From: a virus
Taxonomy: Duplodnaviria > Heunggongvirae > Uroviricota > Caudoviricetes
IMG/VR virus record: IMGVR_UViG_2917413769_000004
Direction: 5' to 3' (one strand)
Length of the DNA stretch: 34,875 nt
The notes under the pieces are model-generated. The model was given only the letters and a program-made list of their open reading frames with translations, ran no database searches and was not told where the DNA came from. Below are positions 25,036-25,806 of the stretch, piece after piece; position 1 is the first letter of the stretch, and the number at the start of each line of letters is the position of its first letter. A program made the position numbers and the translations under genes.

Positions 25036-25806
25036 ATGAAAGAACAATCTTTGCCCATCGTTCCCTGGATTGGCGGAAAACGTCGTCTGGCGAAGCATAT
25101 TTTACCGTTATTTCCGGCCCATACCTGCTATGTGGAGCCATTCTGCGGAGCAGCTGCGCTTTATTTTCTTAAGACACCCAGCAAGATCGAAGTCATTAAC
25201 GATATCAACGGTGATCTGGTGAATCTGTATCGGGTGGTAAAACATCACCTGGAAGAGTTTGTCCGCCAGTTCAAATGGGCACTGGTCAGCCGTCAGATTT
25301 ACAAATGGCTACAGGATACGCCGGAAGAGACACTCACCGACATTCAGCGGGCGGCCCGGTTCTACTACCTGCAGAAACAGGCGTTTGGCGGTAAGGTCGC
25401 CGATCACACATTCGGTACCTCTACAACCAGTGCGCCGCGCTTCAATCTGCTGCGTATTGAAGAAGAACTGTCGATGGCACACCTGCGCCTGTCGAGAACG
25501 CTGATAGAGCATCTGGACTGGCACCAGTGCATAGAGCGATATGATCGCCCACATACGCTGTTCTACTGTGACCCACCGTACTGGGGAACGGAAGGCTATG
25601 GTGTGGAGTTCGGGCTGGAAAACTATGATCACATGGCAGATTTAGCGCGAAGGATCAAAGGGAAGATGATTATATCAGTGAACGATATCCCAGAAATGCG
25701 GCAGGCATTCAACGGTCTGAACATGCAGTCGGTTGATATCAGTTACAACCTTAAGCTAGCTGGCAAACCCAGCCCGAAGAAAGAGCTGGTAATTTGTAAT
25801 TTTTGA
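25036..25806 (+). CDS. dam: DNA adenine methyltransferase, Dam family (N6-adenine MTase)
   Basis: 256 aa; FCGAAALYF (AdoMet-binding motif I) and YCDPPYW (catalytic DPPY); N-terminal PWIGGKRRL. Confidence 0.85.
   Translation: MKEQSLPIVPWIGGKRRLAKHILPLFPAHTCYVEPFCGAAALYFLKTPSKIEVINDINGDLVNLYRVVKHHLEEFVRQFKWALVSRQIYKWLQDTPEETLTDIQRAARFYYLQKQAFGGKVADHTFGTSTTSAPRFNLLRIEEELSMAHLRLSRTLIEHLDWHQCIERYDRPHTLFYCDPPYWGTEGYGVEFGLENYDHMADLARRIKGKMIISVNDIPEMRQAFNGLNMQSVDISYNLKLAGKPSPKKELVICNF

Follow-up and report, generated by a model that had tools for sequence, protein, structure and literature searches.

Directly upstream of an adenine methyltransferase gene of a transposable phage, we identified a conserved, structured candidate RNA leader, whose covarying alternative pairings would occlude the ribosome-binding site (RBS). 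This leader is what is new here; the methyltransferase (MTase) itself was already annotated. The whole stretch of DNA analyzed (34,875 nt; hereafter, the window) represents almost an entire BcepMu-type transposable phage and shares 97% identity with phage KP12 of Klebsiella. The explanation we favor, and hold to be reasonably probable, is that the MTase is an orphan D12-class enzyme with a non-GATC target, which would methylate the phage's own DNA during the lytic cycle as protection against restriction, with its production gated by the candidate RNA leader.

As delineated by alignment and a covariance model, the leader extends over ~135 nt on the plus strand (24,897–25,035), from the elements P1, H1, H2 and H3 through an anti-Shine-Dalgarno (anti-SD) segment to the Shine-Dalgarno (SD) sequence, and ends directly 5′ of the start codon. 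H1 (24,901–24,932) is a 13-bp hairpin formed by a perfect inverted repeat (GACCAGCCCGGUG / CACCGGGCUGGUC), with compensatory changes at 12 of the 12 modelled pairs. It is followed by H2 (24,940–24,956), a CACAG-N7-CUGUG hairpin that covaries (AU:64/GC:25 and AU:73/UA:14), and by the long hairpin H3 (24,966–24,999), which has GGGUU:AGCCU as its base and whose pairs covary as well. Two further helices, both on the plus strand, compete with the base of H3, namely P1, which joins GAAC (24,897–24,900) to GUUC (24,968–24,971), and the anti-SD:SD pairing of AGCCU (24,995–24,999) with AGGCU (25,023–25,027). The alignment additionally revealed an alternative plus-strand helix, in which the 3′ arm of H2 together with the adjoining downstream AGCC (24,954–24,960) can pair with GGCUUAC (25,024–25,030) at the SD.

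The structure and its alternative pairings are shown by covariation. In a MAFFT alignment of the leaders of 29 relatives, 90.6% of the cells were paired, compared to 30–39% in slid controls, and 14 pairs displayed compensatory changes. When 160 related loci were searched with a covariance model, 102 had the leader in front of the MTase gene or com. In a set of 90 distinct sequences, covariation was seen at 30 of the 31 pairs (score 0.512 vs. 0.088 or less); this alignment was itself fitted to the covariance model, yet the MAFFT-only alignments and the helices outside the model agree with it, on smaller sets. P1, for instance, lies outside the model and was paired in 93% of cases with three of its four pairs covarying, and RNAalifold recovered P1, H1 and H2 from 27 diverse MAFFT-aligned sequences. 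The alternative helix between the 3′ arm of H2 and the SD side was paired in 85% (slid controls, 28–45%), and alignment column 140 covaried with both of its alternative partners. The anti-SD and SD segments hardly vary, so that the evidence for the helix between them is mainly complementarity, plus this single column with three-way covariation. In energy, the two conformations are almost equal, at –47.5 and –48.8 kcal/mol.

The leader appears to control translation of the MTase, and from its alternative pairings we infer a switch function as well as a trigger. The latter may be co-transcriptional folding, a small ligand (for example SAM/SAH) or a protein, candidates among the phage proteins being the Mor-family activator (34,055–34,474) and the product of a zinc-ribbon ORF (32,297–32,485). 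The structured leader had been missed in the preliminary description of this DNA, although no other feature of the MTase locus is as informative.

A cmscan search against all 4227 families of Rfam 15 yielded no match to the leader, nor any gathering-level match in the window; at E-values up to 10, only miRNA and sRNA models at chance level were returned. Weinberg et al. (2017) reportedly described a D12-methyl RNA motif, a candidate structured RNA located upstream of D12-class adenine methyltransferase genes, which our element resembles in that a conserved RNA structure precedes a D12-class methylase. This motif is not discussed in the main text of that study. Given the lack of a cmscan match to it up to an E-value of 10, the leader is not a detectable member of the D12-methyl family. 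We tentatively propose that it represents an undescribed but widespread class of phage cis-regulatory RNAs, built from a three-way junction plus a hairpin and alternating between a closed and an open RBS, that may time the synthesis of non-GATC, possibly relaxed-specificity anti-restriction MTases or of com–MTase operons in temperate phages, transposable ones and others, that infect beta- and gammaproteobacteria.

The same hairpins might instead act as terminators or insulators, or form part of an antisense small RNA from the minus strand, and keep read-through out of the lysis operon and the MTase gene. Indeed, H1 is a strong GC-rich hairpin, after which a pyrimidine/U-rich stretch (e.g. GUUCUUUCA) follows on the minus strand, and when nine other leader loci were compared to Rfam, the only matches were sub-threshold hits to ctRNA_pGA1 on the opposite strand, those in two distant loci scoring 35.6 and 32.7 bits, where the gathering threshold is 45. 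Base-pair wobbles point both ways and do not settle the strand: in H1, A-C cells (a wobble on the minus strand) outnumber G-U cells by 107 to 45, whereas H3 contains 84 G-U and 68 A-C cells, and G-U pairs on the plus strand occur in H3 of the window's own subgroup. However, the element always resides on the MTase strand and at a fixed distance from the start of the MTase gene or com in the 102 loci, while the upstream neighbors of these loci are very different and the element often sits inside co-directional late operons. Furthermore, P1 covaries and encloses H1 and H2 in a junction, the SD can be matched by either of two conserved segments, covariation links one column to two alternative partners, and no U-tract directly follows H1 or H3 on the plus strand. 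Together, these observations render a terminator or antisense function unlikely.

Three further candidates in this region were considered and rejected. An intrinsic terminator composed of H3 and a U-run was discarded, with the U-run being 6–7 nt off the stem and not conserved in distant members. The 12-bp palindrome GTCTCGCGAGAC is unique in the window and could have served as a protein operator; it fits an RNA stem better, because it forms the apex of H3 and undergoes compensatory substitutions across relatives. The sole match of a sigma-70 scan, TTCACT-18-GATAAT, overlaps the start codon and was not accepted as a promoter.

The coding sequence downstream of the leader (25,036–25,806, plus strand; ATG start) specifies an orphan D12-class N6-adenine DNA methyltransferase of 256 amino acids (PF02086; TIGR00571). 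Pfam assigns residues 11–232 to MethyltransfD12 (PF02086) with 94.7 bits, compared to a gathering threshold of 22 (E 1e-26). Clade alignment placed the AdoMet-binding motif I, FCGAAALYF, an FxGxA variant of the FxGxG consensus, at 25,141–25,167 (aa 36–44) and the catalytic motif IV, DPPYW, at 25,570–25,584 (aa 179–183). F36, G38 and A40 of motif I are invariant among 76 clade members and align with F35, G37 and G39 of EcoDam; likewise, DPPY (aa 179–182) is invariant in 76 of 76 members, and D56 conserves the AdoMet-binding D54 of EcoDam. The motifs follow the D12 order, i.e. motif I, recognition domain, then motif IV, so that fold family, motif order, DPPY and the D54 equivalent are all shared with EcoDam, T4 Dam and DpnM. 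Accordingly, DpnM and EcoDam were the nearest solved structures (E ~4e-15, or 5e-21 with a clade profile). A profile search for diverse homologues returned near-identical enterobacterial proteins only, and an AlphaFold2 model computed from this shallow alignment reached a pLDDT of 51; the comparison of recognition hairpins below is thus by sequence only. The motifs confirm the enzyme as a stand-alone alpha-class (D12) N6-adenine MTase that is predicted to be catalytically intact. The preliminary description had likewise called it a prophage-encoded orphan adenine methyltransferase with the Dam-family motifs FCGAAALYF and DPPYW. Both motifs are intact in this ORF, and searches of the neighboring genes with Pfam and PADLOC found no adjoining restriction endonuclease. 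As to the label 'Dam-family', it holds for the D12 alpha class and fails for GATC-specific Dam.

Against the Dam equivalog model (NF008152 / PRK10904), the MTase scored 71.3 bits, far below the cutoff of 441, and by this measure is not a Dam orthologue. The residues through which EcoDam contacts GATC are said to be K9, Y119/N120, L122, R124 and P134 (Horton et al., 2006). In the MTase, these positions are occupied by P, F/G, K, A and S, respectively. Its K/G/T-rich target-recognition beta-hairpin region, QKQAFGGKVADHTFGTSTTSAPRFN (25,372–25,446, plus strand; aa 113–137), aligns gaplessly to EcoDam residues 115–139, with N120, L122, R124 and P134 exchanged for G, K, A and S. This separates the MTase from the GATC enzymes EcoDam, T4 Dam and DpnM, whose K9, N120, L122, R124 and P134 equivalents are replaced in it. 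The K9 equivalent is P in 75 of 76 clade members and the L122 equivalent K or R in all 76; the R124 position is not conserved inside the clade (E/A/D/S). Since all GATC-reading residues of EcoDam and DpnM have been lost from the hairpin, the target probably differs from GATC, and may be a relaxed sequence.

A true GATC methylase resembling T4 or P1 Dam, serving in MutH avoidance or in the epigenetic timing of phage promoters or packaging, would agree with the closest solved relatives all being GATC enzymes, with the database names 'DNA adenine methylase' and 'Modification methylase DpnIIA', and with the cutoff of the TIGR00571 'dam' subfamily, which the MTase barely reaches (114.9 vs. 114.85 bits). 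The shortfall against the Dam equivalog, the substitution of five out of five GATC-contact positions and the variability of the R124 position even within the clade, however, make this distinctly unlikely. The phage also avoids GATC (71 sites vs. 166 expected, z –7.4), which would be less needed by a phage with its own GATC methylase, although this argument is a weak one.

Two leads toward a different target were dropped. TGGCCA is hinted at by Chania and Photorhabdus methylomes; the Chania gene to which it was assigned measures 816 bp, unlike the 771-bp MTase gene, no motif has been assigned to plu3449 of Photorhabdus, and the phage DNA shows neither avoidance nor enrichment of TGGCCA. AamA of Acinetobacter (GAATTC) proved too distant to guide specificity. 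A literature search retrieved no methylome, biochemical or specificity data for any member of the clade.

Transposable phages of the BcepMu type have the MTase gene as a conserved component: its position, divergent from holin-SLT, is constant in 16 of 16 such relatives, which differ in the neighboring genes. In the window, it forms a separate unit that adjoins the repressor and diverges from the lysis/late operon. The protein itself is ordinary, as orphan adenine methylases are common in phages and this one is annotated in thousands of genomes. Across Enterobacterales, the proteins are 96–99% identical and annotated as 'DNA adenine methylase', and some protein clusters occur on as many as 700 to 1000 contigs or more. 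The clade is that of phage B3 ORF48 and phiE125 gp27; identity to B3 ORF48 amounts to 65% over 251 aa, and to the methylases of phiE125 (gp27), phi1026b (gp26), VP882 and phiHAP-1 to 62–69%, with the catalytic motifs and the divergent recognition hairpin shared among them.

In B3, ORF48 (a 'Dam modification methylase') overlaps ORF47, encoding Com, inside the tail operon, whereas the window MTase lacks a Com gene. B3, too, carries the structured element upstream (L004:2196–2343), where it ends at the com start. A Com-type zinc-ribbon ORF was found upstream of the MTase homologue in 18 of 80 viral relatives, but neither in the window nor in its 16 closest relatives; in 16 of the 80, the homologue is the last gene on the contig, i.e. 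in the position of mom. The claim of a Com-like gene elsewhere in the phage had to be abandoned: the zinc-ribbon ORF in question (32,297–32,485) matches neither Pfam PF10122 (Zn_ribbon_Com) nor B3 Com by BLASTP, and falls into a PHROG of unknown function. The reported absence of mom, on the other hand, agrees with near-identical phage KP12, in which no mom is annotated.

In Mu, the translation start of mom is held in an RNA structure. The present locus resembles com–mom in belonging to a Mu-type phage, in encoding an adenine-modifying function and in having its start codon within an RNA structure (here a predicted one), yet differs in that the Com gene of Mu lies next to mom and none adjoins the window MTase. 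As the leader precedes com itself in relatives, it represents an additional layer of control and not the target of Com. Mom is an unrelated enzyme of the acyltransferase fold, which makes N6-acetamido-adenine, and in relatives, the MTase takes the mom position behind Com (PMC3299994). Hia5, Hin1523 and Nma1821 are D12-related non-specific m6A MTases that replace mom in Mu-like (FluMu-type) prophages; they confer broad protection from restriction, and their recognition region diverges from that of Dam (PMC3299994). The window MTase appears to lie outside the Hia5/Hin1523 family. B3 ORF48 is absent from the 1000 best Hia5 hits (PMC3299994), and a BLASTP comparison of the MTase to SuMu gp53 gave no significant match (E 0.03 on 26 residues). 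We assume the latter protein, an MTase that is linked to Com in a Mu-like phage of Pasteurellaceae, to be a Hia5-family member and hence a stand-in for that family, based on its Com linkage, its host family and its weak Pfam D12 score (only 23 bits).

Of the roles proposed in the preliminary description, self-protection is the best supported, given the family context of relatives in the Com/Mom position; that the MTase alters gene expression of the lysogenic host is unlikely. As a lysogenic-conversion factor, the MTase would be expressed from the prophage, add a motif to the chromosome and remodel host expression. In favor of this, its gene lies in the accessory region next to the repressor, a frequent site of lysogeny-expressed morons, and some orphan MTases such as AamA do alter host phenotypes (PMC10483419). 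Yet plu3449 of Photorhabdus TT01 is expressed at <0.001 times the level of gyrB, with no methylation motif assigned to it (PMC6092372). This gene has the same 771-bp length as the MTase gene, lies within a phage region and is a probable orthologue (Photorhabdus orthologues being 84–86% identical). Prophage D12 orphan MTases of E. coli EC958 are likewise silent (PMC4659465). With an SD-sequestering leader that argues for default-off expression, and a position conserved as that of a phage core gene while the surrounding cargo turns over, lysogenic conversion is very unlikely.

The cargo in question is a swappable insertion (23,919–24,891), with the late (holin) promoter on one side and the leader of the MTase on the other. 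It carries, on the minus strand, the gene for a 188-aa DUF2441 protein (24,226–24,792; Pfam PF10386, E 4e-7; phrog_5663, of unknown function) and has the late-promoter core, TTAACGCG(N)TTTA, as a flanking direct repeat (23,907–23,919 and 24,844–24,856). In E. coli HH107, it is replaced by 36 bp, such that the holin gene directly adjoins an MTase gene of ~97% DNA identity; in AVS0747, a different 819-bp cassette with another gene fills its place. That the DUF2441 ORF, for which no function is known and which adjoins the MTase gene in divergent orientation, should form a restriction–modification or toxin–antidote pair with it, as its earlier mention as a possible partner nuclease implied, is hardly credible, since HH107 and AVS0747 keep the MTase without it, only two of 16 close viral relatives possess a homologue, neither Pfam nor PADLOC returned a nuclease or defense-system match, and the duplicated promoter core is as expected for a moron cassette. 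Being swappable and so rarely retained, the DUF2441 gene is thus not the cognate nuclease of the MTase. More generally, the conserved adjoining endonuclease of type II restriction–modification systems is missing from this locus, where the MTase neighbors, the DUF2441 cargo and a lipoprotein gene, are variable. Between the convergent MTase and lipoprotein genes lies a GC-rich hairpin (25,820–25,847; 13-nt arms, 92% complementary, 2-nt gap) that is probably a bidirectional terminator.

Under the favored explanation of a leader-gated, self-protecting MTase, the enzyme would be made during lytic growth and methylate newly replicated phage DNA, enabling the progeny to escape adenine-sensitive restriction in the next host; judging from the family context, its job would resemble that of Mom in Mu and of Hia5-type enzymes in FluMu. 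The ~135-nt leader folds into a three-way junction (P1, H1 and H2) plus the long hairpin H3, and its conserved segments AGCCU and GUGAGCC are able to pair with the SD region, yielding mutually exclusive conformations with a closed or an open RBS. In related phages, the leader precedes com–MTase operons; in the present lineage, devoid of Com, it adjoins the MTase gene directly.

The names 'Dam' and 'DpnIIA methylase' mislead in implying GATC, as the recognition residues say otherwise. This matters for methylomes of Enterobacterales that carry the prophage, which is found in about 11% of complete E. coli genomes. Moreover, the clade connects phages of the BcepMu type with the methylases found in the Com/Mom position of B3-like phages, which supports a shared anti-restriction role. 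Finally, the covarying leader, present at 102 of 160 loci and absent from Rfam, offers a concrete and testable entry point to the question of how a DNA-modifying enzyme that could do harm is held back by phages until it is needed.

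The 256-aa adenine methyltransferase ORF (MTase; 25036–25806, + strand) is preceded by an RNA element, hereafter the leader (24897–25035). Alignment of the 170 nt 5′ of the start codon across BcepMu-type relatives revealed hairpins with compensatory substitutions. The leader is structured: in a MAFFT alignment of 29 relatives' leaders, hairpins H1 (24901–24932), H2 (24940–24956) and H3 (24966–24999) had 90.6% paired cells (30–39% with slid partners as controls), 14 double-change pairs (1–7 in controls) and a covariation score of 0.301 (≤0.084). A covariance model derived from this alignment had hits (E < 0.01) at 102 of the 160 related loci scanned, both viral and genomic, and never more than one per locus. 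The element always lies on the MTase strand and extends to the start codon of MTase or, in loci with a Com gene, to that of com. For instance, the element of phage B3 (locus L004) spans 2196–2343, with com starting at 2334. The resulting alignment of 90 distinct sequences had compensatory changes at all but one of the 31 pairs (30), with 89% paired cells (25–40% in controls) and a score of 0.512 (≤0.088).

As the 90-sequence alignment was fitted to the covariance model, two helices outside the model were also checked. P1 (GAAC 24897–24900 with GUUC 24968–24971; four pairs) encloses H1 and H2 as a junction, is 93% paired and covaries at three of its four pairs. An alternative helix joins the H2 3′ arm plus AGCC (24954–24960) to GGCUUAC (25024–25030) at the ribosome-binding site; it is 85% paired (28–45% in controls), and a single column covaries with its H2 partner as well as with its partner on the Shine-Dalgarno (SD) side. 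RNAalifold, given a MAFFT-only alignment of 27 diverse sequences, recovered P1, H1 and H2; of the 20 pairs it predicted, 16 have compensatory changes. H3 offers a further segment complementary to the SD (AGGCU, 25023–25027), namely AGCCU (24995–24999) in its 3′ base strand, and pairing at the H3 base competes with P1. In the window's own sequence, only 1.3 kcal/mol separates the "SD free" from the "SD paired" conformation, and the leader region folds more stably than shuffled versions (z −3.6).

We read the leader as a cis-acting element that keeps translation of MTase or com off by default, inferring its function as a switch, its trigger and the transcription start. An antisense RNA or an insulator is retained as a rival explanation, because the G-U vs. 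A-C asymmetry in H1 gives no strand decision. Comparison with Rfam 15 families returned no match for the leader; at other loci, an antisense ctRNA model alone gave matches, all below threshold and with the strand reversed. In the B3 record, the element (25725–25872) overlaps the annotated ORFs 45 and 46 ('hypothetical proteins' of 44 and 27 codons, stop included). Given this overlap with a structured element, at least ORF46 is probably non-coding and belongs to the RNA leader of com-ORF48.

The enzyme itself is ordinary and already known as an annotated entity. Its ORF is intact and matches Pfam PF02086 (D12-class N6-adenine DNA methyltransferases) near full length (E 1e-26), and the Dam-type motifs named in the preliminary description, FCGAAALYF (aa 36–44) and DPPYW (aa 179–183), are present, which confirms that observation. 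Its closest solved structures are DpnM and E. coli Dam, with T4 Dam farther off. While this places the protein in the D12 class, the narrower sense of "Dam-family" did not hold: MTase scored 71 bits vs. a 441-bit cutoff in the Dam equivalog model, and barely reached the cutoff of the broad "dam subfamily". Alignment to E. coli Dam and DpnM revealed the substitutions K9→P, N120→G, L122→K, R124→A and P134→S at positions that, in these enzymes, reportedly read GATC (work of Horton and colleagues in 2006). Across 76 distinct clade members, the K9 site is P in 75 and the L122 site K or R in all 76, the R124 equivalent varies (E/A/D/S), and catalytic and AdoMet positions are invariant. Judged by its sequence, MTase is not a Dam orthologue, and the name "Dam" misleads. 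No palindrome is avoided more strongly in the phage than GATC (71 occurrences vs. 166 expected, z −7.4).

The nearest phage proteins in tblastn (62–69% identity) were B3 ORF48 (65% across 251 residues), phiE125 gp27, phi1026b gp26, KS9 gp25 and the methylases of VP882, phiHAP-1, Shewanella MuM16-1 and Curvibacter TJ1. A literature search found no experimental specificity for any clade member, and REBASE lists "?" for plu3449, the probable orthologue in Photorhabdus TT01 (PMC6092372). Proteins 96–99% identical to MTase are annotated as "DNA adenine methylase" in Enterobacter, Klebsiella, Salmonella, Escherichia, Citrobacter, Pantoea and others; certain clusters of near-identical proteins occur on 700 to 1000 or more contigs, and the 3.4 kb around MTase was matched in 625 of 5426 complete E. 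coli genomes.

The window approximates a complete transposable phage and shares 97% identity with a 34.9-kb record, "Klebsiella phage KP12 clone KP12_2", in whose annotation S. Typhi STY1594 is cross-referenced. Leftward from ~23850 run the genes for tail, head, terminase and lysis (Rz, SLT transglycosylase, holin). A CI-type repressor (26424–26930, − strand) faces a rightward early operon with a Ner-like gene, IclR-type HTH and DUF3102 genes, a DDE transposase (28374–30143), a MuB-like gene, GemA and a Mor-family late activator (34055–34474), a divergent layout that we take to be that of BcepMu-type Mu-like phages. The repressor gene 5′ part and early promoter region are flanked by a 17-nt inverted repeat (GATATGTTCAAATGGGT / ACTCATTTGAACATATC; 26665–26681 and 26829–26845; 94% complementary, 147 nt apart), whose arms are candidate operator sites. 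MTase lies centrally between lysis genes and repressor, oriented away from the late operon. Downstream of it, a lipoprotein gene (25854–26388, − strand) of 177 aa in KP12 and two E. coli relatives is truncated to 127 aa: an A7 tract in those genomes is A8 here (~26010–26017), which shifts the frame by +1. The extra A could be an error of sequencing, mark a pseudogene or reflect slippage-prone phase variation.

Sixteen BcepMu-type viral relatives all carry MTases (79–93% identical) in the same place, divergent from holin-SLT. As MTase is kept while the adjacent insertion (23919–24891) differs among relatives, MTase is a conserved phage gene and the DUF2441 gene within the insertion (24226–24792, − strand; 188 aa, phrog_5663) a replaceable moron, probably driven by the late promoter. 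A DUF2441 homologue occurs in only two of the 16 relatives; in E. coli AVS0747 this position holds another gene, of 182 aa, and in E. coli HH107 the holin gene directly adjoins the same MTase, 36 bp replacing 23919–24891. On either side of the insertion stands a copy of the late (holin) promoter core, TTAACGCG(N)TTTA, the two forming a direct repeat (23907–23919 and 24844–24856, − strand); this motif has eight copies in the window vs. 1.8 expected; cargo-less relatives have a single copy of the core. The divergent holin/MTase intergenic region is a hot spot for the exchange of different cassettes. A further candidate gene in the insertion (23922–24305, + strand; 107–127 aa) overlaps the DUF2441 gene 3′ end and had no match in Pfam, PHROG, NCBIfam or PADLOC. 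A restriction-modification pair of MTase and DUF2441, the suspected nuclease partner, was rejected, since a defence-system search returned no match for DUF2441 and this neighbor is replaced or absent beside the same MTase; the orphan status proposed for the methylase stands.

A Com-type zinc-ribbon ORF lies directly upstream of the gene in 18 of 80 IMG/VR relatives, and B3 ORF48 overlaps the Com gene 3′ end. In 16 of the 80, the gene is the final one on the contig (most such contigs 24–52 kb), as mom holds the end position in Mu. FluMu-type prophages carry non-specific m6A methyltransferases (Hia5, Hin1523) in place of mom, and B3 has, besides a Com homologue, another type of adenine methylase that falls outside the 1000 best Hia5 hits (Drozdz et al., PMC3299994). 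MTase showed no significant similarity to gp53, the Com-linked methylase of Haemophilus phage SuMu. Its clade is separate from Mom/Hia5 and biochemically uncharacterised, yet appears to share their niche. The Com-like gene reported elsewhere in this phage does not merit that name: the 62-aa zinc-ribbon ORF of the early operon, with two CxxC knuckles (32297–32485, + strand) has no Com match in Pfam and no BLASTP similarity to B3 Com, and its phrog_3401 (unknown function) lies outside the Com PHROGs. A MazG-like NTP pyrophosphohydrolase gene (32414–32782, + strand) begins within this ORF.

Six of eight GC-only 6-mer palindromes (GCCGGC, CCGCGG, GGCGCC, GCGCGC, CGGCCG, CCCGGG) occur once in total in the whole window vs. 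about 96 expected; among the A/T-containing ones listed, only TCCGGA was significantly avoided (1 vs. 13). This fits a phage that is able to protect adenine-containing sites enzymatically but has to shed those with cytosine only; mutational bias of the host is an alternative.

In the lysogen, the MTase gene would be silent. Expression of plu3449 is <0.001 times that of gyrB, with no attributable motif (PMC6092372), and other prophage D12 orphans are likewise silent (PMC4659465); Photorhabdus species carry 256-aa orthologues 84–86% identical to MTase. Upon induction, a transcript would run through the leader from a promoter placed in or beyond the junction shared with the Mor-dependent late region. 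Tight gating is expected if the enzyme, like Mom, harms the host when uncontrolled, and lends circumstantial support to a broad specificity. A single feature of the locus goes beyond current knowledge: the leader RNA, which is conserved, covaries and is absent from Rfam. Opening of the leader would allow MTase to methylate replicated phage DNA at a non-GATC target, so that progeny DNA would be protected from adenine-sensitive restriction; such self-protection is the best-supported of the roles considered for MTase.
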